Source: an uncultured Gammaproteobacteria bacterium (lineage in GTDB: Bacteria; Patescibacteriota; Microgenomatia; UBA1406; GWC2-37-13). Taken from it: 64,000 bases of DNA. Position numbers and translations under genes: made by a program. Under the pieces are notes generated by a model, which worked only from the letters and a program-made list of their open reading frames with translations, was not told the DNA's origin and did no database searches. This document shows positions 6,244 through 63,829 of this stretch, in pieces. The stretch spans positions 11,993 to 75,992 of the forward strand of contig CAYLXX010000001.1 of NCBI GenBank assembly GCA_964387955.1, read 5' to 3'. Position 1 is the first letter of the stretch. Each line of letters begins with the position of its first letter.

Positions 6244-6397
6244 CATCAATGTTGCTCGAGAAGCTGTGCAGAATGCAGTTCAAACCAATCTCCGCGAATG
6301 TCCTTCGTGTGGAGAACTAACTCTCAAAGGTATGCCAGGAGGCCACGATGCCATCTGTAAAAATTGCGGTTACAAAGATCCTTGCTGTTATGATTAA
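6212..6397 (+). CDS. small zinc-ribbon protein (start uncertain)
   Basis: CPSCG...CKNCG double CxxC plus a C-terminal CCYD. The ATG at 6212 overlaps the ferredoxin end; an in-frame GTG at 6266 is an alternative start. The stop overlaps the greA ATG. Confidence 0.45.
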   Translation: MIKATGSSLNNINVAREAVQNAVQTNLRECPSCGELTLKGMPGGHDAICKNCGYKDPCCYD

Positions 6398-6845
6398 GAA
6401 AATAATTTTTACCAAAGAAGGGTTTGAGGATCTTCTTAAAGAGAAAAAAGAGCTTGATGACAATAGAATAGGAGCCGTTAAAGAACTCTCAATTGCACGA
6501 GATATGGGTGACCGGAGCGAAAATGCCTTTTACAAAACTGCTCGTCAAAAATTATCCGGTATTGATAGAAGACTAAGGGAAATTAATCGACTTGTTAGAT
6601 TAGCAGAGGTTGTTAAGCCCAATAATACCGGCGTTGTCGAAATTGGCACACATGTTGTTTTGCAATCCGATGGAGAAACTTTTAGATATTTGATTGTTGG
6701 AGATTATGAATCTGATCTTTCCAAAGGCAGATTGTCTTGCACATCACCTCTTGGTAAGTCTCTTATTGGTAAAAGGTCTGGGGAAACAATCTCACTGACA
6801 CTACCTAAAGGAGAAAAAACCTACACGATTGAGTCTATTAATTAA
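6390..6845 (+). CDS. greA: transcription elongation factor GreA
   Basis: MIKKIIFTKEGFEDLLKEKKEL coiled-coil N-terminus, DRSENAFY motif, C-terminal FKBP-like domain. I chose the ATG at 6390 rather than the track start at 6348. Confidence 0.85.
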   Translation: MIKKIIFTKEGFEDLLKEKKELDDNRIGAVKELSIARDMGDRSENAFYKTARQKLSGIDRRLREINRLVRLAEVVKPNNTGVVEIGTHVVLQSDGETFRYLIVGDYESDLSKGRLSCTSPLGKSLIGKRSGETISLTLPKGEKTYTIESIN

Positions 6846-28396: not shown

Positions 28397-28506
28397 TAAT
28401 TTCGAGAGTTTGGAAATAGGTATATCTAGAGAGATTAGAGAGTTATCCGTTATAACTAGCTGATTCCTCTAAATAACCCCCGCCGACTCTCCTCAATACA
28501 AATAGT

Positions 28507-30588
28507 ATGAAAAAAACAGAGAAAACTCTTGATATCGATGGATCGAAACTTACGTTACAATTTGGAAAATTAGCTCAACAGGCCACCACTTCATGTTTCG
28601 CTCGTATGGGTGATACCTGTGTTTTAGTCACTGTTACAGTGGGTAAAATGCGTGATGACCTAGATTATTTTCCACTTCAGGTTGAATACGCCGAGAAACT
28701 TTATGCAGGCGGACGTATCAAAGGTTCCCGCTGGGTTAAACGCGAAGGCCGACCTTCAGATGAGGCGATTTTAACCGGTCGTTTGATCGATCGTGGTATT
28801 CGTCCATTATTTCCTAAAGATTATCGACGCGATGTCCAAATTATCATCACATTGATGTCAGTTGATGGCGAGAATTCACCAGATATTTTGAGTGCCATTG
28901 CTGTATCAGCTGCCTTACATGTATCTCCGATCCCATGGGACGGACCAATAAGCACAATTCGTGTTGGTCATGTGAAAACTGAAGAGAAGAACTCTTTTGT
29001 GATCAACCCTTCTGAGGAAGAAAATAAGTTCTCAGAGCTTGATCTTATTGTGACTTCATCCAAGGATAAAGTCATGATGATCGAGGCCGAAGCACTTGAA
29101 TTTGATGAGCCAACAGCACTAGAAGCCATCAAATATGCCAAAGAAGCCAATGGCAAAATTATAGATTTCATGGAGTCACTGCGCAAAGAAATCGGTATGG
29201 ACAAAGAGACTGTGCCAGCTCCTAAGATCGATGATAAATTGAAGCAGATTCTTAAAAAAGACTTTGTCAAGCAATTGAATCAACTTATTGATCAAAAAGC
29301 CGAGAAGGAATTTGAAGATCGTGATGCACTCGATGCAGTCGTCAACGAAGTTCATGAACTTCATAAAGACACATATGACTCAAAAGTCATTATGCAAGCA
29401 ATTGACTATATGACAAAGCAGATGATTCGTGAAAGAATCTTGAAGACTAAGAAAAGACTTGATGGCCGTGGACCAGAAGATATTCGTCCATTATCAGCTG
29501 AGGTCTCAATTTTACCTCGTACCCATGGATCAGCTATTTTCCAGAGAGGCGACACTCAAGTTCTCTCGATTGCCACACTTGGTGCTCCAAGACTTGAGCA
29601 AATGATCGAAGGACCAGAAGGTGAAGAGGCCAAGACCTACATGCATCACTACTACATGCCTCCATATTCAGTCGGAGAAACAGGTAGAGTCGGTACACCA
29701 TCTCGTCGTGAGATTGGCCACGGTGCTCTTGCTGAAAAGGCGATTGAGCCGGTTTTGCCATCAATCAAAGAATTTCCTTATGCTATCCGAGTTGTGTCTG
29801 AAGTATTATCCTCCAACGGATCAACTTCCATGGCTTCAACTTGTGGATCAGCCTTAGCTCTGATGGATGCTGGAGTACCAATCAAGAAGCCTGTTGCAGG
29901 TATTGCTATGGGTATCATGTCCAACTCAGATGAGGATTATCTTATCTTGACTGACATCATGGGAGTCGAAGACTTCTCTGGTGAAATGGACTTTAAAGTT
30001 GCCGGTACTAAAGACGGCATCACAGCCATTCAACTTGATGTTAAAAACAAAGGTTTAACAGACAAAATGATCGCGGAAGTTCTTACCAAAGCCAAAGCTG
30101 CACGACTCAAGATCCTTGACGTTATGGTGGCTGCGTTGGATAAGCCTCGTCAGCATGTGTCTAAGTTTGCACCTAAGGTTGTTGTGATTTCACCACCTCA
30201 AGATAAAATCGGTGAGATTATCGGCCCAGGGGGAAAGAATATTCGTAATCTTATTGCTCGAACTGAAACCGACATCAATGTCGCCGATGATGGTAAGGTC
30301 ACCATCAGCGGACTTGACCAAGACAAAGTTCAAGCTGCAGTTGATCACATCGAGAGCATCACTCGCGAACTTGAACCTGGAGAAGAATTCGAAGGTATAG
30401 TCAAAAAGATCATGCCTTTCGGGGCCTTCGTTGAAGTATTACCAGGTAAGGAAGGTTTGGTCCACGTGTCACGTATGGGTAAAGGATTCGTCAAAGACCC
30501 CAATGACGTCGTGAAAGTCGGACAAACAGTCAAAGTCAAAGTCAACGAGATTGATAATCAAGGCCGAATCAATCTTGCGATGATTTGA
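28507..30588 (+). CDS. pnp: polyribonucleotide nucleotidyltransferase (PNPase)
   Basis: Two RNase PH domains, a KH domain (IGPGGKNIRNL) and an S1 domain (GIVKKIMPFGAFVEV). 693 aa. Confidence 0.95.
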   Translation: MKKTEKTLDIDGSKLTLQFGKLAQQATTSCFARMGDTCVLVTVTVGKMRDDLDYFPLQVEYAEKLYAGGRIKGSRWVKREGRPSDEAILTGRLIDRGIRPLFPKDYRRDVQIIITLMSVDGENSPDILSAIAVSAALHVSPIPWDGPISTIRVGHVKTEEKNSFVINPSEEENKFSELDLIVTSSKDKVMMIEAEALEFDEPTALEAIKYAKEANGKIIDFMESLRKEIGMDKETVPAPKIDDKLKQILKKDFVKQLNQLIDQKAEKEFEDRDALDAVVNEVHELHKDTYDSKVIMQAIDYMTKQMIRERILKTKKRLDGRGPEDIRPLSAEVSILPRTHGSAIFQRGDTQVLSIATLGAPRLEQMIEGPEGEEAKTYMHHYYMPPYSVGETGRVGTPSRREIGHGALAEKAIEPVLPSIKEFPYAIRVVSEVLSSNGSTSMASTCGSALALMDAGVPIKKPVAGIAMGIMSNSDEDYLILTDIMGVEDFSGEMDFKVAGTKDGITAIQLDVKNKGLTDKMIAEVLTKAKAARLKILDVMVAALDKPRQHVSKFAPKVVVISPPQDKIGEIIGPGGKNIRNLIARTETDINVADDGKVTISGLDQDKVQAAVDHIESITRELEPGEEFEGIVKKIMPFGAFVEVLPGKEGLVHVSRMGKGFVKDPNDVVKVGQTVKVKVNEIDNQGRINLAMI

Positions 30589-58318: not shown

Positions 58319-58346
58319 TGCTTCTTCTCCTGATACAATGTGATTT

Positions 58347-61145
58347 ATGTTTACTCAGTCTGATGCCCAGGTAGACTTTCCTAAACTTGAAGAAGGCATA
58401 CTCTCATTTTGGCAAAAAAATAAGACATTCGAGAAGTCACTTGAGTTACGAAAAGATGCCAAAAAATGGAATTTCGTCGATGGCCCTCCTTTCATCACTG
58501 GTCTTCCTCACTACGGTACTTTACTTTCGAGTATCCCCAAAGACGTGTTTCCCAGGTTTTGGACAATGAAAGGGTATTATGTGAGACGTGTTTGGGGTTG
58601 GGATGTACACGGTCTTCCCGCAGAAAATAAAGTTGAGGTCAAACTTGGGCTTAAGAGTAAGAGAGACATAGAAGAAAAAATCGGTGTCAAAAAATTTATC
58701 GAAGAATGTAAAAAATATGTTAGCGAAGTCTCCGGTGAGTGGGAGTGGTATGTTGATCACATTGCCCGCTGGGTAGATTTTAAAAATGCCTACAAAACCA
58801 ATGATCTCTCGTACATGGAGTCAGTGATGTGGGTATTTAAGCAAATGCATGAGAAAAACCTGATTTACAAAGGCCTGCGTGTATCTTTGTATTGTCCTCA
58901 CGATTCCACGCCTATCTCCAACTTCGAAGTAGCCATGGATGCCGATAATTACAAAATGGTTACCGAAATGGCAACAACCTATAAATATAAACTGCTCGGA
59001 GAAAAAGACACGTATCTACTTGCCTGGTCGACTACTCCTTGGAATAAAATTGCTACACCAGCACTGGCTGTCAATCCCCAACTCGAGTATGTGAAAGTCG
59101 AAGAACATGGTGAGAAATATATACTGGCTAAAACTACTTTAAAGATGTTGAGATCTGAAAAACCAAAAATTCTTGAAACTTTCAAGGGTGAAAAATTGAT
59201 CGGAGCCGAGTTTGAACCCCACTATGATTTTTACACAATTGACCCTGGTAAAAAAGCCTTCATAGTTATTGGCGGAGATTTCGTGACAGCCGAAGAAGGA
59301 ACAGGCATCGTGACCATTGCAGCCTATGGAGAAGAGGACTTGGCTGTCATGAAAAAAGAAAATATCCAGATTGTCTTGCATGTTGATGATGAGGGAACTA
59401 TTTTGCCGCATGTACCTAAATTTGGCGGCATGTATTACCTTAAGGCCAATAAAGCAGTTGATGAAGATTTAACAGGAAGAGGACTGGTGTATAAAGAGGA
59501 AGAATACACCCATAGTGTACCTACATGTTGGCGCTGTCACACACGATTGTATTATGCACCGCAAGATGCTTGGTATGTGAATATCCAAAATCTCAAAGAT
59601 CAACTAAAAAAAACCAACGAACAAGTGAATTGGTTCCCGCCTCATTTTAAACACGGCCGATTTTTGAAAAGTTTAGAAGCAGCCCCTGATTGGTGTATTT
59701 CACGCAGCCGTTATTGGGGTTCACCTGTACCTGTGTGGGAATGTGAAAACGATCATCAATTTGTGCCAGGATCAATAGCCGAACTCGAAAAAGCCTCTGG
59801 TAAAAAAATAGCCGATCTTCATAAACCAGAAATTGACGAAGTGGTAGTTATGTGTAAGGAATGTGGTAAACCTGCTCAACGAGTGAAAGAGGTTCTGGAT
59901 AGCTGGATTGAAGCTGGCTCTGCCCCGTATGCTGAACGACATTATCCGTTTGAGAACAACAATTTACAAGATTTTTTTCCGCCAGATTTTATTGTTGAAT
60001 ACACCGGTCAAATAAGGGCTTGGTTTTATGTCCTCCACGTTTTAGCCAATGCCATTTTTGAGTCGAATGCTTTTAAAAACGTCATTGTTACCGGAGTAAT
60101 TCTAGGGTCAGACGGCCGTAAAATGAGTAAAAATTACGGCAATTATCCAGATCCCAAAATGATGCTTGAGAAATATGGTGGTGATGCTTTGCGTTTGTAT
60201 CTTCTAGGAAGTTCGGTCATGAAAGGCGAGGATATACTAATTTCAGAAGAGGAATATCGTAATCAACTCAAGACATTACTTATTCCTATAACTAATATCT
60301 ATAAATTTTTTGCAACCTACGCCAATGCCGACAAGTGGGAACCTCAAACCGAGATTCAGGTAAAAAATATTCTTGATGTCTGGATTATTTCCAAGCTGCA
60401 CTCTTTGATAAAAAATGTTACGAAAGCGCTTGAGAATTACGACACTATAACTGCAGTCTCGCAACTGACTATCTTTATCGACGACATGTCCAAGTGGTAT
60501 ATTCGCCGTAGCAGATCGCGAGTGGGTATGCAGGCAGAAAATGACGCCGATAAAAACGAGTTTTATAGTACTTGCTATGTTGTACTTAAAACATATTCCC
60601 AGATTCTGGCGCCGATAGCTCCCTTCATGAGCGAATTTTTGTATCAACATTTAACAGATGATGAATCTGTGCATTTGACCAATTGGCCAGAGTATGATGA
60701 CTCATTGATCGACGCATCTCTTGAGCAAATGATGGACCAAGCCCGCAAAGCAGTAGAAGAGGGTCATGCTAAAAGGAAAGAAGAAAAAATCAAAGTACGT
60801 ATGCCCATGAGACTTCTCGAGTGGAAATCAGAACAGGATTATAAGAGTATGAGCCCTGAAATTTGGAATATTATTCTGGAAGAGCTTAATGTAAAAAATA
60901 TTAAAGTAGGCGCTATCAGATATCCTGCCATTGAAGTGAAAGTGACTGACGAAGAACTACAGCATGAAGGAGACTTGCGTGATCTGATACGAAAAATTCA
61001 AGAAGAGCGAAAAAATTTAGGCTACACCATCGACAAGAAAATATCTCTCATTATCCCCAAAGATTTCGCAAAAGACACCGATTTTATTAAAAAACGCGTT
61101 CTTGCTGTAGACATCAAAGTCGGCGAAAGTCTCTCGGTTGAGTGA
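58347..61145 (+). CDS. ileS: isoleucyl-tRNA synthetase, type 2 (eukaryote-like)
   Basis: DGPPFITGLPHYGT (HIGH region), CP1 editing domain, KMSKN loop followed by YGNYPDP. 932 aa. Confidence 0.85.
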   Translation: MFTQSDAQVDFPKLEEGILSFWQKNKTFEKSLELRKDAKKWNFVDGPPFITGLPHYGTLLSSIPKDVFPRFWTMKGYYVRRVWGWDVHGLPAENKVEVKLGLKSKRDIEEKIGVKKFIEECKKYVSEVSGEWEWYVDHIARWVDFKNAYKTNDLSYMESVMWVFKQMHEKNLIYKGLRVSLYCPHDSTPISNFEVAMDADNYKMVTEMATTYKYKLLGEKDTYLLAWSTTPWNKIATPALAVNPQLEYVKVEEHGEKYILAKTTLKMLRSEKPKILETFKGEKLIGAEFEPHYDFYTIDPGKKAFIVIGGDFVTAEEGTGIVTIAAYGEEDLAVMKKENIQIVLHVDDEGTILPHVPKFGGMYYLKANKAVDEDLTGRGLVYKEEEYTHSVPTCWRCHTRLYYAPQDAWYVNIQNLKDQLKKTNEQVNWFPPHFKHGRFLKSLEAAPDWCISRSRYWGSPVPVWECENDHQFVPGSIAELEKASGKKIADLHKPEIDEVVVMCKECGKPAQRVKEVLDSWIEAGSAPYAERHYPFENNNLQDFFPPDFIVEYTGQIRAWFYVLHVLANAIFESNAFKNVIVTGVILGSDGRKMSKNYGNYPDPKMMLEKYGGDALRLYLLGSSVMKGEDILISEEEYRNQLKTLLIPITNIYKFFATYANADKWEPQTEIQVKNILDVWIISKLHSLIKNVTKALENYDTITAVSQLTIFIDDMSKWYIRRSRSRVGMQAENDADKNEFYSTCYVVLKTYSQILAPIAPFMSEFLYQHLTDDESVHLTNWPEYDDSLIDASLEQMMDQARKAVEEGHAKRKEEKIKVRMPMRLLEWKSEQDYKSMSPEIWNIILEELNVKNIKVGAIRYPAIEVKVTDEELQHEGDLRDLIRKIQEERKNLGYTIDKKISLIIPKDFAKDTDFIKKRVLAVDIKVGESLSVE

Positions 61146-61159
61146 GCTATAATTAGCAG

Positions 61160-62191
61160 ATGGGAATTGCTTTGCCTTCTTTACTACTCTTCATTTTCGG
61201 TGCTTTTACCCTTCTTGGAGTTAAACCCGAGCTCTTTTTCAATCAAATCATTTTTTTTGTAATAGGAATAGGTCTTTATTTTTTTATTAAAAAAATGGGA
61301 TCGCACTTCTTCCGGATAAATGTGGGTTTTTTTTATTGGTTCTTTATTATTCTCCTTGTGGCTACTTTTTTAATCGGTATTGAAGCAAAAGGTTCTAAAC
61401 GCTGGATCGATCTCATATTTTTTAATTTTCAGGCCTCTGAGTTTTTTAAAGTATTTTTTTTACTGTATTTTGCCGATTACTTTTCTAAAAATAGATTGTA
61501 CGGTGACCAATTTCAGGCGTTTCTAAAAAGTTTACTAATTGCAGGAGTGCCAATTTTTATCATCTTTAAGCAGCCTGATTTAGCAACTGCGCTTACATTT
61601 ATCTGCATGTATGTTGTCTTATTGCTTTTTTCCAAAGTTCCAAAAGCGTATATTATCAATGTCGCTATCGTGACGATGTTTATATTGCCGCTGTTTTTTT
61701 TCCTGTTAAAAGATTACCAAAAAGCCCGCATTGTCGGCTTTCTTAATCCGCATGTTGATCAACTGGGAACTTCTTATAATATGACTCAAGCGATCATCGC
61801 AGTCGGTTCGGGTCAGTTTTTTGGCAAGGGGCTAGGTGCTGGTACACAATCAGGCCTCCATTTTCTCCCCGAAAACCACACCGATTTTGCCTTTTCTTCT
61901 CTTGTTGAACAATTTGGCTTTGTCGGAGGAGGGATCGTGATCTTGTTGTATGGTTTGCTGGCCTATAATTTTATAAAAAAAATTATCACGTATTTTTATG
62001 ATAGGAGTGAAGAGGGGAGATTTAAATTTTTGTTTACTTTGGGTTTTTTCACTTTTTTCGTGTTCCAAGTGTTGGTGAATATAGGTATGAATGTGGGGCT
62101 ATTGCCTATTGCTGGTATTACTCTGCCTCTTATTTCCTACGGCGGCTCATCGCTTGTAACCTGGGCCATTGGTCTGGCACTTCTGCCTTAA
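61160..62191 (+). CDS. rodA: SEDS family protein RodA-like
   Basis: FQASEFFKV, ENHTDFAFS, GITLPLISYGGSS. A TATAAT box (61148..61153) lies 6 nt before the ATG. Confidence 0.8.
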   Translation: MGIALPSLLLFIFGAFTLLGVKPELFFNQIIFFVIGIGLYFFIKKMGSHFFRINVGFFYWFFIILLVATFLIGIEAKGSKRWIDLIFFNFQASEFFKVFFLLYFADYFSKNRLYGDQFQAFLKSLLIAGVPIFIIFKQPDLATALTFICMYVVLLLFSKVPKAYIINVAIVTMFILPLFFFLLKDYQKARIVGFLNPHVDQLGTSYNMTQAIIAVGSGQFFGKGLGAGTQSGLHFLPENHTDFAFSSLVEQFGFVGGGIVILLYGLLAYNFIKKIITYFYDRSEEGRFKFLFTLGFFTFFVFQVLVNIGMNVGLLPIAGITLPLISYGGSSLVTWAIGLALLP

Positions 62192-62206
62192 AACGATCCT
62201 ATAATA

Positions 62207-62235
62207 TTGCAAAATTCTGACTTTTTGGCTATAAT
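62207..62235 (+). promoter_or_regulatory. sigma70-like promoter preceding a long untranslated leader
   Basis: TTGCAA (62207..62212), 17-nt spacer, TATAAT (62230..62235). The next credible start codon is about 280 nt downstream at 62521. Confidence 0.5.
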
Positions 62236-62334
62236 ATAAGCTTAGCAGTATTGCTTTCTTCAGCCACGATAGATGCCTTCTGGCCCCGGAAATCAATAGG
62301 GTTTTGCACCTTGATAAAACTAGGATGCTGCCTT

Positions 62335-62389
62335 AAGTGAAAGAGGCTAAAGGAGGGTATAATCTGCCTTTCTCTATTCTCTTTCACTT
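62335..62389 (+). promoter_or_regulatory. 11-bp perfect inverted repeat (hairpin) in the leader
   Basis: AAGTGAAAGAG (62335..62345) pairs with CTCTTTCACTT (62379..62389). An inner AAAGG/CCTTT pairing partly sequesters an AAGGAGG-like element and a TATAAT. Confidence 0.5.
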
Positions 62390-62520
62390 TAGTTGAATTG
62401 AAGCTTAAAAGAGCCTAGATTCACAACTTTCCTTTTGAAGGGATGAGGGCGGCCTCCAAACGGAAAATAACAGTGAAAGCGAACCTGGTAGTTAGCTCGA
62501 GGAAACGAAAGGAGACTAGT

Positions 62521-62871
62521 ATGGAAGAACTTACAGTACTAACCCCAAGTTATGATCGTCCGGTTATACATGTGCCGTTTGACGGTCAATTCGACACGAC
62601 ATTAGCTCGTTCGAAGGATACTACACTTCGTGCGATAGGTCGTTGGTCAGGCGAGAGCGGTGTCATCAATGTGACATTTCAGCTCAGAGCTTCTGATTTC
62701 CATATGGTGTCTGGGAAGCGCATCAACGTCAGAAAGATGCCACAACCCAAAGACCCGCGGCCGGTAACAAGTTACGGACGAACCACTCAAAGAGGAAACT
62801 TGAAGATGAGACTCAAGCCTGGTATTTACCAAGTTTGGTTCCATTCTCCAACAGACGAGATTGACGATTAA
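62521..62871 (+). CDS. orphan protein X1 (116 aa), no family recognised
   Basis: ATG at 62521 preceded by AAAGGAG (62508..62514). An in-frame ATG at 62443 would add a K/R-rich 26 aa but lacks a spaced SD. Lys/Arg-rich C-terminal half. Confidence 0.55.
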   Translation: MEELTVLTPSYDRPVIHVPFDGQFDTTLARSKDTTLRAIGRWSGESGVINVTFQLRASDFHMVSGKRINVRKMPQPKDPRPVTSYGRTTQRGNLKMRLKPGIYQVWFHSPTDEIDD

Positions 62872-62923
62872 AGTAAAGGACGAGCCGCCCTCTCCTTTTA
62901 CTTCTATGATAAGGAGTGAAGTA

Positions 62924-63316
62924 ATGTCTCAAACGACCTTGGACTACCAAGTCAAACTTTGGTGTTCTGATTGCCAAAAAAACGTCATAGTCACCAAGCC
63001 TGTAGGTTTGAAACACAATGCATATGTTGAGAAAGCCAATTGCCCAATATGCAATAGCTTTTATCCTTTGTCGGAGATCGCATGCCCGGACTGCCAATGC
63101 ACCACCATAGAAGCCTGGACACTCTGCAAAGGTCAATTAAGCCATGCACATTCTGAGCGAAAGCTTACTCACCAAGTAACTTTACCTACGAGCGTCGACC
63201 TATCTCACCATATTCGCCGTATCGAGATAGCAATGGTACTTATAGTCTTAGTGCTCCTGGCTCTCATAGCCTGGCTCGCTGCACAAGTTGCGCAAGGAGG
63301 TTTCACTGTTCCGTGA
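62924..63316 (+). CDS. orphan protein X2 (130 aa): Cys-rich zinc-ribbon N-domain with a C-terminal transmembrane anchor
   Basis: ATG at 62924 preceded by AAGGAG (62911..62916). CSDC, CPIC and CPDC plus two more Cys. TM segment IAMVLIVLVLLALIAWLAAQVA lies near the C-terminus. Confidence 0.6.
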   Translation: MSQTTLDYQVKLWCSDCQKNVIVTKPVGLKHNAYVEKANCPICNSFYPLSEIACPDCQCTTIEAWTLCKGQLSHAHSERKLTHQVTLPTSVDLSHHIRRIEIAMVLIVLVLLALIAWLAAQVAQGGFTVP

Positions 63317-63436
63317 TTCAAGGTGTGAGAGAGAACGTATTTTCTAAATATCAGATGGCATCTGGCAGTTGATTGCCATTGCAATCGCTCGTGGCCCAAT
63401 CAGCCCCAGAAATCCTTTGATATAAATACCTTCTCC

Positions 63437-63489
63437 TCTCACTTTTTAGGCTCAACTACGGTTGATTCCAGAAAGTGAGGATTTTTATT
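63437..63489 (+). terminator. possible intrinsic terminator after the orphan cassette
   Basis: TCTCACTTT (63437..63445) pairs with AAAGTGAGG (63472..63480), 8 WC plus 1 GU, followed by ATTTTTATT. The 26-nt loop is atypical. Confidence 0.3.
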
Positions 63490-63515
63490 GAAAATTGAAG
63501 GTTTTCAGGTATAAT
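63488..63515 (+). promoter_or_regulatory. sigma70-like promoter for rplU-rpmA
   Basis: TTGAAA (63488..63493), 16-nt spacer, TATAAT (63510..63515), then 8 nt to the ATG at 63524. Confidence 0.55.
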
Positions 63516-63523
63516 GTATACAT

Positions 63524-63829
63524 ATGAAATTAGCGGTTATTAAAACTGGTGGCAAACAATACTTAGTCCAAGAGGCCGATGAAATCGTCGTTGATATGCT
63601 GGAAGGCAAAAAAGACGAAAAAATCGAGCTGGAAACCTTGGCACTTATTGACGAAGAAACTGTCAAATTAGGCGACCCAGCTCTTAAAGAAGCTGTCACG
63701 GCCACAATTGTCGATCATATTAAAGGCGATAAAATCCGCGTGGCTAAATTTAAATCCAAAGTGAGATACCGTAAAGTTAGAGGGTTTCGTCCTCGACTGA
63801 GCAAACTTAAAATTGGTACAATAAAATAA
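63524..63829 (+). CDS. rplU: 50S ribosomal protein L21
   Basis: MKLAVIKTGGKQYLV and the C-terminal KRKVRGFRP-like basic region. Confidence 0.9.
   Translation: MKLAVIKTGGKQYLVQEADEIVVDMLEGKKDEKIELETLALIDEETVKLGDPALKEAVTATIVDHIKGDKIRVAKFKSKVRYRKVRGFRPRLSKLKIGTIK

Follow-up and report, generated by a model that had tools for sequence, protein, structure and literature searches.

A two-gene cassette, probably recently acquired, between rodA and rplU in a Roizmanbacteria-like genome

The junction between rodA and rplU in a 64,000-nucleotide stretch of contig CAYLXX010000001.1 (GenBank assembly GCA_964387955.1; the whole stretch is called the window below, and positions count from its first base) raises the question of how two genes without recognizable relatives came to lie in a row of housekeeping genes. 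The two open reading frames (ORFs), here named X1 and X2, were found on the + strand at 62521..62871 and 62924..63316, where an earlier reading of the bare sequence (the original prediction) had placed them, and the genes around them (pnp, ftsK, greA, ftsQ, ftsA, ftsZ, ileS, rodA, and rplU) are housekeeping genes. The host is a Roizmanbacteria-like member of the Candidate Phyla Radiation (CPR): GC content of the window is 40.0%, and its RodA is 49-58% identical to the RodA of most matched metagenome-assembled genomes (MAGs), many of which are labelled Candidatus Roizmanbacteria, Microgenomates, or Patescibacteria. Our analysis indicates that X1 and X2 probably form a recently acquired, self-contained bicistronic accessory operon at an insertion hotspot, a reading that covers the acquisition and anatomy of the cassette and leaves its role to be weighed separately.

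An insertion between rodA and rplU

To compare the junction we used 87 related ileS-rodA-rplU loci recovered from genomes and metagenomes with RodA, comprising 84 with a measurable rodA-rplU gap and the three closest relatives, found by RodA protein search. The gene order ileS-rodA-rplU is kept across the recovered loci, and the two downstream genes typically lie close together (median gap 65 bp; at most 200 bp in 68 of the 84). Neither X1 nor X2 is encoded in any of the 87 loci, and the comparison of this junction among relatives that had been proposed as a check shows that the pair is not conserved there. The three closest relatives, L103, L101, and L104, have RodA proteins 78, 75, and 65% identical to that of the window and rodA-rplU gaps of only 35, 30, and 38 bp. 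L101 and L102 even come from the sample (SRR9179563) that yielded the only other copy of the cassette, yet they lack the insert.

The boundaries are sharp. A blastn alignment of the window to L101 ends at 62189 and restarts at 63502, two points that are separated by 12 nt in L101. In L101, L103, and L104 the short spacer consists of a -35 element directly behind the stop codon of rodA, followed by the block TTTTCAGGTATAAT and a further 7-8 nt up to the rplU ATG; the block is identical in all three and is found again in the window at 63501-63514. Since the alignment breaks in this way and the relatives have both 30-38-bp gaps and the same rplU promoter, the window holds an insertion of about 1,300 bp at 62192..63487 (+ strand; the right end is approximate). 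Immediately beyond it, and outside the insert, the native leaderless rplU promoter TTGAAA-16-TATAAT (63488..63515, + strand; 11/12 in a consensus scan) forms the right boundary. The firmest result of our analysis is that some 1,300 extra bases separate the stop codon of rodA from the native promoter of rplU and that both of these elements are undamaged; comparison with close relatives narrows the insertion point down to within about a dozen bases. Degenerate direct repeats that had been reported on both flanks did not hold up: they are matches of just 10-12 nt, and as candidate attachment sites or target-site duplications the flank repeats are not above chance, the best direct flank-to-flank local alignment being equalled in 9 of 300 shuffles and the inverted one in 24 of 300.

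The same junction has been filled more than once. In 13 of the 84 relatives the rodA-rplU gap exceeds 400 bp, with different cargo each time, and the junction is a recurrent insertion site in the Roizmanbacteria-like group. Strain-specific genomic islets are accessory genes that lie between core genes at integration hotspots and are exchanged via flanking homology. The cassette resembles them in standing between core genes that are syntenic in 87 loci, in its absence from close relatives, in its atypical composition (see below), and in the unrelated cargo of the 13 expanded junctions. It differs from them in being tiny (1.3 kb, two genes), in having no mobility gene, tRNA, or flanking repeats, and in a cargo that has no homologue at all and keeps a style of initiation foreign to the host. 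As an orphan islet at a hotspot, it is a fairly ordinary recent acquisition of a familiar kind, and its instructive twist is the foreign translation signals. The locus is of value chiefly as a clean case, with well-defined boundaries, of genes gained recently by a Roizmanbacteria-like CPR genome.

Translation signals, composition, and origin

Both cassette genes are preceded by textbook Shine-Dalgarno (SD) sequences, with the motifs, positions, and spacers that the original prediction had given: AAAGGAG at 62508-62514, 6 nt before the X1 ATG, and AAGGAG at 62911-62916, 7 nt before that of X2. The duplex with the anti-SD sequence is predicted at -11.8 kcal/mol for X1, the strongest of 62 presumptive genes in the window, and at -8.3 kcal/mol for X2, against a predicted median of -1.1 kcal/mol across the 62. 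When these genes were surveyed, AAGGAG at a working distance was found before X1 and X2 only. The sole native gene with a comparable site is greA (6348-6845), which has AGGAGG-N5-ATG with the site at 6337; wherever else in the window AGGAG precedes a start codon, the combination falls within a longer gene. With three SD-bearing genes among the 62, the hypergeometric probability of both cassette genes being in that set is about 0.0016.

The background against which these signals stand is of another kind. Most window genes either have a TATAAT-like box 5-11 nt before the start or are coupled to the gene ahead of them, and a -10-like box lies within 20 nt of the start in about 25 of the 62, which bears out the SD-poor, leaderless or coupled setting first noticed by eye. 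The pattern extends beyond the window: among 519 genes of the Roizmanbacteria-like loci (L002-L096), 50% have a -10-like hexamer no more than 20 nt upstream of the ATG, and 1.3% have a 5-mer SD core, so AAGGAG-type sites are rare in window and lineage alike. Judging by these start regions, leaderless or coupled starts appear to be by far the rule in the lineage; a literature search on leaderless translation in CPR bacteria gave nothing on the point. The inspected starts of cargo genes at the same junction in relatives also lack SD sequences, unlike X1 and X2, and several (for example in L010, L034, and L039) lie just past AT-rich -10-like sequence.

Composition points in the same direction. 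GC content is 0.47 in X1 and 0.46 in X2 compared to 0.394 +/- 0.027 in the other genes (z +2.9 and +2.6), a modest elevation as had been noted from hand counts, although no part of the window departs further in GC content. Codon-usage and k-mer scores, which had been suggested as a further check, show codon usage to be the most atypical of the 62 window genes (log-likelihood z -4.6 for X1 and -4.3 for X2, the lowest two), and the tetranucleotide distance of the 1.33-kb segment (z 2.4) lies in the top 2% of same-size windows. Atypical codon usage, GC content, and tetranucleotides, combined with SD-led, leadered signals that are rare in the lineage, point to acquisition from an SD-using donor with little later adaptation. 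The donor would have been another bacterium or a phage that uses SD initiation, and the unit would not yet have adapted to the leaderless or coupled style of its host. Entry was most likely by recombination via the conserved flanks, as at other integration hotspots; the insert contains no recombinase gene or terminal repeats.

Homology searches place neither gene anywhere else. Both proteins were compared with 5.8 billion word-indexed clusters, and X1 was additionally searched exhaustively with HMMER against 1.84 billion representatives. The clusters returned only the locus itself for either protein, and the exhaustive search found no real relative of X1 beyond its own locus; two extra matches (P0003 and P0004) were rejected as spurious, since each adds up short matches to the repeats of giant or repetitive proteins. 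Searches of Pfam, PHROGs, PADLOC, and NCBIfam at E<=1 were empty or sub-threshold for both proteins, and a PDB sequence search, tblastn against phages and plasmids, and IMG/VR scans yielded no homologue of X1 or X2. The first impression that the two genes match no family thus stands after profile, cluster, PDB, phage, and plasmid searches. In this respect, the locus adds two singleton protein sequences and no new principle.

Are X1 and X2 genes at all? When the insert was shuffled 2000 times, a pair of ORFs this long turned up in 4 of the shuffles, and the coding signature R1/G1 (purine, and G, at codon position 1) peaks in the called frames of both. The rarity in shuffles, the optimal SD spacing, the R1/G1 signal, the predicted fold of X1, and the helix and CxxC pairs of X2 (see below) together favour X1 and X2 as real genes. 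The locus is also represented by an independent assembly product, Logan contig L001 (1,780 bp, made by a separate assembler), which covers both junctions; two single-nucleotide polymorphisms, at 62072 and 62254, set it apart from the window.

Several points nevertheless weigh against a recent acquisition as we describe it. The GC difference is only about 7 points, and codon statistics are noisy for genes this short. The cassette promoter (see below) resembles host promoters, and the transcription and translation of the unit are predictions from sequence signals. At large scale X2 was searched only in the word-indexed database, which is not exhaustive; neither protein has a homologue that would point to a donor. 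Finally, no integrase, transposase, target-site duplication, or terminal repeat marks the insert, leaving the mechanism of entry without a signature.

These points have to be set beside three other explanations. X1 and X2 could be native, lineage-specific genes, either fast-evolving, born de novo at a variable intergenic site, or left from an ancestral pair lost in the relatives, all without lateral transfer. Orphan genes are frequent in CPR genomes, the cassette promoter is host-like, greA shows that the host can use an SD, and the rodA-rplU junction varies in 13 of 84 relatives, all of which would suit a native origin. However, de novo birth from AT-rich intergenic DNA would not raise GC content by 7 points or produce the two worst codon-usage scores among 62 genes, two perfect SD sites would be unexpected de novo in a lineage where 1.3% of genes have them, and ancestral presence would require independent loss in all 87 loci, including the three close ones with intact 30-38-bp gaps. 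We regard a native origin as unlikely. About equally improbable is that X1 and X2 are chance or dying frames and that the 1.3 kb represent a decaying mobile-element remnant or a structured non-coding RNA locus. The joint rarity of the ORFs (at least 116 and 130 aa) in shuffles, their optimally spaced SD sites, the R1/G1 signature, which is universal for coding sequence, and the absence of any Rfam family run counter to this idea, as do the compact all-beta model of X1 (pLDDT 74 without an alignment) and the CxxC pairs and hydrophobic helix (~24-30 residues) of X2. In its favour, purifying selection is not demonstrable without homologues, the ORFs are bordered by strong hairpins (RNA or DNA), their codon usage is a poor match to that of the host, and some relatives carry filler that is, or in L079 is presumed to be, ORF-less (1,040 bp in L003 and 840 bp in L079) or palindromic elements of the miniature inverted-repeat transposable element (MITE) type (L002 and L093) at the junction.

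An assembly artefact, in which foreign reads were spliced between rodA and rplU of a chimeric or contaminated contig, is still less probable. For this, two separate joins would have had to fall precisely on the stop codon of rodA and the -35 element of rplU, both of which are intact, and the Logan assembly repeats both junctions, with no repeat at the joins that could have misled an assembler. The source is nonetheless a MAG whose insert differs in composition from its flanks, and the sole second copy is a short contig that probably derives from the same read set. With the module absent from relatives, outside known families, and led by SD sites that are rare in the lineage, the lateral acquisition proposed in the original prediction remains the reading we favour. 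If so, SD-led cargo in a leaderless lineage suggests a simple and testable marker for foreign genes in leaderless CPR genomes.

Anatomy of the unit and its two proteins

The cassette has the parts of a complete transcription unit. A promoter comes first, then a leader (about 280 nt) that contains a hairpin; X1 and X2 follow, each behind its SD and with 52 nt between them, and the unit closes with a 114-nt hairpin and a terminator reaching up to the rplU -35 element. The cassette's own sigma-70-type promoter, TTGCAA-17-TATAAT (62207..62235, + strand), is real as a consensus match (10/12 in the scan), and its use is predicted. Since no ATG lies at leaderless distance from this promoter, the transcript is predicted to be leadered. 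The predicted 5' leader (62242..62520, + strand), placed by its position between promoter and X1 start, is unexceptional in its overall fold (z -1.7) and unmatched in Rfam even at E<=10. Within it lies a hairpin at 62332..62392 (+ strand; inverted repeat I1, 26-nt arms) that is predicted at -27.5 kcal/mol (z -4.7, with none of 200 shuffles as good); the minus strand folds less strongly (z -3.8). The hairpin buries an SD-like AAGGAGG and a TATAAT, and its 3' arm has an alternative pairing with 62472-62483 (I6). Read from this single sequence, the hairpin and its alternative partner might act as an attenuator-like switch or riboswitch.

An 8-mer, AGTGAAAG, occurs ten times in the window compared to 2.7 expected, a number reached in none of 100 shuffles. 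Three copies (62336, 62381 on the minus strand, and 62472) lie in the cassette leader, in the hairpin arms and their alternative partner, and the other seven lie elsewhere in the window.

Downstream of X1, directly after its stop codon, is a weak intercistronic stem-loop (62871..62903, + strand; inverted repeat I7) that is not better than shuffles (z -1.45). The structures that follow X2 bear out the downstream dyad symmetries that had been noticed earlier. A long imperfect hairpin of 114 nt, which would form a structured 3' untranslated region, begins directly after the X2 stop (63327..63440, + strand; -42.6 kcal/mol, z -5.7, none of 200 shuffles as good; z -3.5 on the minus strand) and has no match in Rfam. 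It is succeeded by a terminator-like hairpin (I2) at 63437-63480 and a U-run, AUUUUUAUU, the whole spanning 63437..63489 on the + strand (-20 kcal/mol, z -4.0) and ending at the rplU -35 element. Rfam searches of the whole window at the gathering score and of 62100-63600 at E<=10 gave just noise, in the form of miRNA and snoRNA models far under threshold. We also considered whether the 3' hairpin could be an integron attC site and rejected this by inspection: its ends (GAGAGAGAAC...CCTCTC) do not fit R'' (RYYYAAC) and R' (GTTRRRY), the only pair resembling these motifs lies 4 nt apart within the terminator loop, and no integrase is encoded from 58 kb to the end of the window at 64 kb.

X1 (62521..62871, + strand; 116 aa, with its SD at 62508-62514) has an isoelectric point (pI) of 9.7, contains no cysteine, and lacks a signal peptide; by these features it is presumably cytoplasmic. 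NCBI annotation starts it at 62443 (142 aa) and the Logan call at 62521, and we favour the latter because of the position of the SD sequence. From the single sequence, AlphaFold2 predicts a compact all-beta protein of nine strands (pLDDT 74.3, pTM 0.64). Foldseek neighbours of this model in PDB and BFVD include SIAH1, the TRAF-like domain of USP7, TRAF5, and a Fadolivirus protein (TM 0.47-0.59, probability up to 1.0); Pfam MATH and Sina do not match X1 even at E<=1. A MATH/TRAF/SIAH-type sandwich is accordingly best treated as a lead only, drawn from a structural model. These are X1's best structural neighbours, and eukaryotic SIAH and TRAF proteins likewise join zinc fingers to such a sandwich, but in the cassette the zinc fingers would be on a separate, membrane-anchored protein encoded downstream of X1.

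That second protein, X2 (62924..63316, + strand; 130 aa, with its SD at 62911-62916), is a predicted tail-anchored zinc-ribbon protein. It has eight cysteines, arranged as CxxC at 14-17, 41-44, and 55-58 plus C60 and C69, in an N-terminal Cys/His-rich region, then a positively charged HHIRR stretch, a helix, and 7-9 residues past it. AlphaFold2 places the C-terminal helix at about residues 94-123 with pLDDT 91-93; outside this helix the model is poor (overall pLDDT 55). HHIRR before the helix and the 7-9-residue tail indicate that X2 would be tail-anchored with its zinc-ribbon domain in the cytoplasm. Pfam DZR, DZR_2, Zn_ribbon_6, and DUF7836 match at 10-14 bits compared to gathering scores of 25-27. 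Like DZR and zinc_ribbon membrane proteins, X2 combines paired CxxC knuckles with one transmembrane helix behind them; it differs from them in having no extracytoplasmic domain past the helix and only matches below the gathering scores. The original prediction of a membrane-anchored zinc-finger protein with a small basic partner agrees well with three CxxC pairs, a helix of pLDDT above 90, and the pI of X1. A frameshifted X1-X2 fusion was considered and rejected: going upstream from the ATG, the X2 frame stays open for just ~38 codons, and X2 is preceded by an SD of its own.

We can outline how the unit might work. Transcription would begin near 62242 or arrive by readthrough from rodA, which has no terminator of its own, and X1 and X2 would be translated by the SD route, which the host should be able to follow because greA also uses an SD. 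X2 would be anchored in the membrane, its zinc-ribbon domain facing the cytoplasm, and it probably either recruits X1, the presumed soluble and basic beta-sandwich, or is under its control; the cassette terminator would insulate rplU. For the role of such a pair, context and architecture lead us to rank first a small accessory pair of the conflict or addiction type (phage exclusion, defence, or toxin-antitoxin (TA)-like), although we hold even this tentatively and consider it rather doubtful. The hotspot carries a TA pair in another relative, and one small soluble and one small membrane protein would suit such a pair. Like type II TA and two-gene defence modules, the cassette consists of two small, adjacent, co-directional genes, is self-contained, and has one small membrane product, and the same junction in L010 carries a bona fide Phd/YefM-ParE pair. 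Unlike type II TA genes, X1 and X2 are non-overlapping and 52 nt apart, with no DNA-binding antitoxin fold detected, and they have no sequence match to TA or defence families save a generic zinc-ribbon one; at E<=1, Pfam, NCBIfam, PHROGs, and PADLOC hold no toxin or antitoxin family that matches either.

The zinc-ribbon match is to HEC-08, a defence protein with a HEPN domain and a zinc finger: in PADLOC, X2 residues 13-62 align to positions 205-254 of its profile, in the C-terminal zinc-finger-like part. The defining part of HEC-08 is an RNase domain of the HEPN type (DUF3644) at the N terminus, and defence depends on its Rx4-6H motif (bioRxiv 10.1101/2024.01.29.577857). We rejected X2 as a HEC-08 protein, as the match does not touch HEPN and X2, at 130 aa and tail-anchored, has no room for that domain. 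X1 does hold an Rx4-6H-like string (R-ASDF-H), but it is predicted to be all-beta, compared to a helical HEPN.

The functional guess is further tempered by three observations that count against it: the HEC-08 match is weak (E 3e-4), just one of five X1 models is confident (the other four have pLDDT near 50), and all Foldseek matches, made with a model from a single sequence, have E >= 2e-3. The toxin- or defence-type pair raised in the original prediction draws on context and is backed by no test. Its other suggestion, an anti-sigma-like or signalling pair, failed on its defining features, with no sigma partner, motif, or extracytoplasmic domain. Superficially, a cytoplasmic Cys/His-rich domain followed by one transmembrane helix does recall the zinc-binding anti-sigma (ZAS) factors, for which X1 would be the partner. 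However, X1 is predicted to be all-beta and matches neither Sigma70_r2 nor Sigma70_r4 even at E<=1; X2 has no zf-HC2 match and no H-x3-C-x2-C (the nearest is H31-x8-C40-x2-C43); only 7-9 residues follow its helix, leaving no extracytoplasmic sensor domain; and the adjacent genes are rodA and rplU, neither of which encodes a sigma factor. We consider this role the least probable of all the alternatives discussed here. Returning to a conflict pair, its boldest form would be a previously unseen two-protein membrane system, in which a tail-anchored zinc-ribbon protein and a MATH-like partner were captured by a CPR episymbiont from its host or a phage and are made by SD-led initiation in a cell whose other mRNAs are leaderless. 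This is speculative and improbable; if true, SD sites could be used to trace recent transfers into leaderless CPR genomes.

Other cargo at the junction and other features of the window

The contents of the junction in other loci are varied. The gap of L010 (7017-8977) holds the Phd/YefM-ParE pair and a 256-aa protein without assigned function, that of L011 (4015-5389) a cytochrome P450, and that of L039 (6948-8511) a Y1 (IS200-like) transposase with one further protein. Two large surface-type proteins lie in the gap of L034 (4538-8023), and a family of 136-158-aa signal-anchored orphan proteins is found in those of L043, L046, L047, and L057. Palindromic MITE-like elements in L002 (1830-1988) and L093 (2559-2791) have a common CCGAATCGG core, the L002 element ending in TGTCATTCTGG...CCAGAATGACA. 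The 1,040-bp gap of L003 (2294-3334) contains no ORF longer than 54 aa, and that of L079 (840 bp) is presumably also filler. An Rfam search of six relatives with gaps above the 65-bp median (158-1,040 bp) found tRNAs elsewhere only.

The gene ileS (58347-61145 in the window, 2178-4979 in L101, and 494-3484 in L103) belongs to two very different IleRS types that occupy one ftsZ-ileS-rodA slot in close relatives. The window IleS is 78% identical to that of L101 (RodA 75%), just 37% to that of L103 (RodA 78%), 30-50% (mostly 31-38%) to those of most Roizmanbacteria loci, and 60-62% to those of L052, L054, L059, L078, L095, and L097. From these identities, the pattern looks like an in-situ replacement of ileS by a distant xenologue. 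Next to it, L101 has an additional 369-aa gene between ftsZ and ileS (1065-2174, with weak Sigma70_r2 and Sigma70_r4 matches), where the window has 28 bp only (58319-58346); this is a second presence/absence difference from L101, its closest relative from the same sample as the other cassette copy, within a few kb of the cassette. Finally, the largest tetranucleotide deviation of the window is not in the cassette: it lies inside pnp (28500-29600; gene 28507-30588), with an L1 distance of 0.42 compared to a mean of 0.26.

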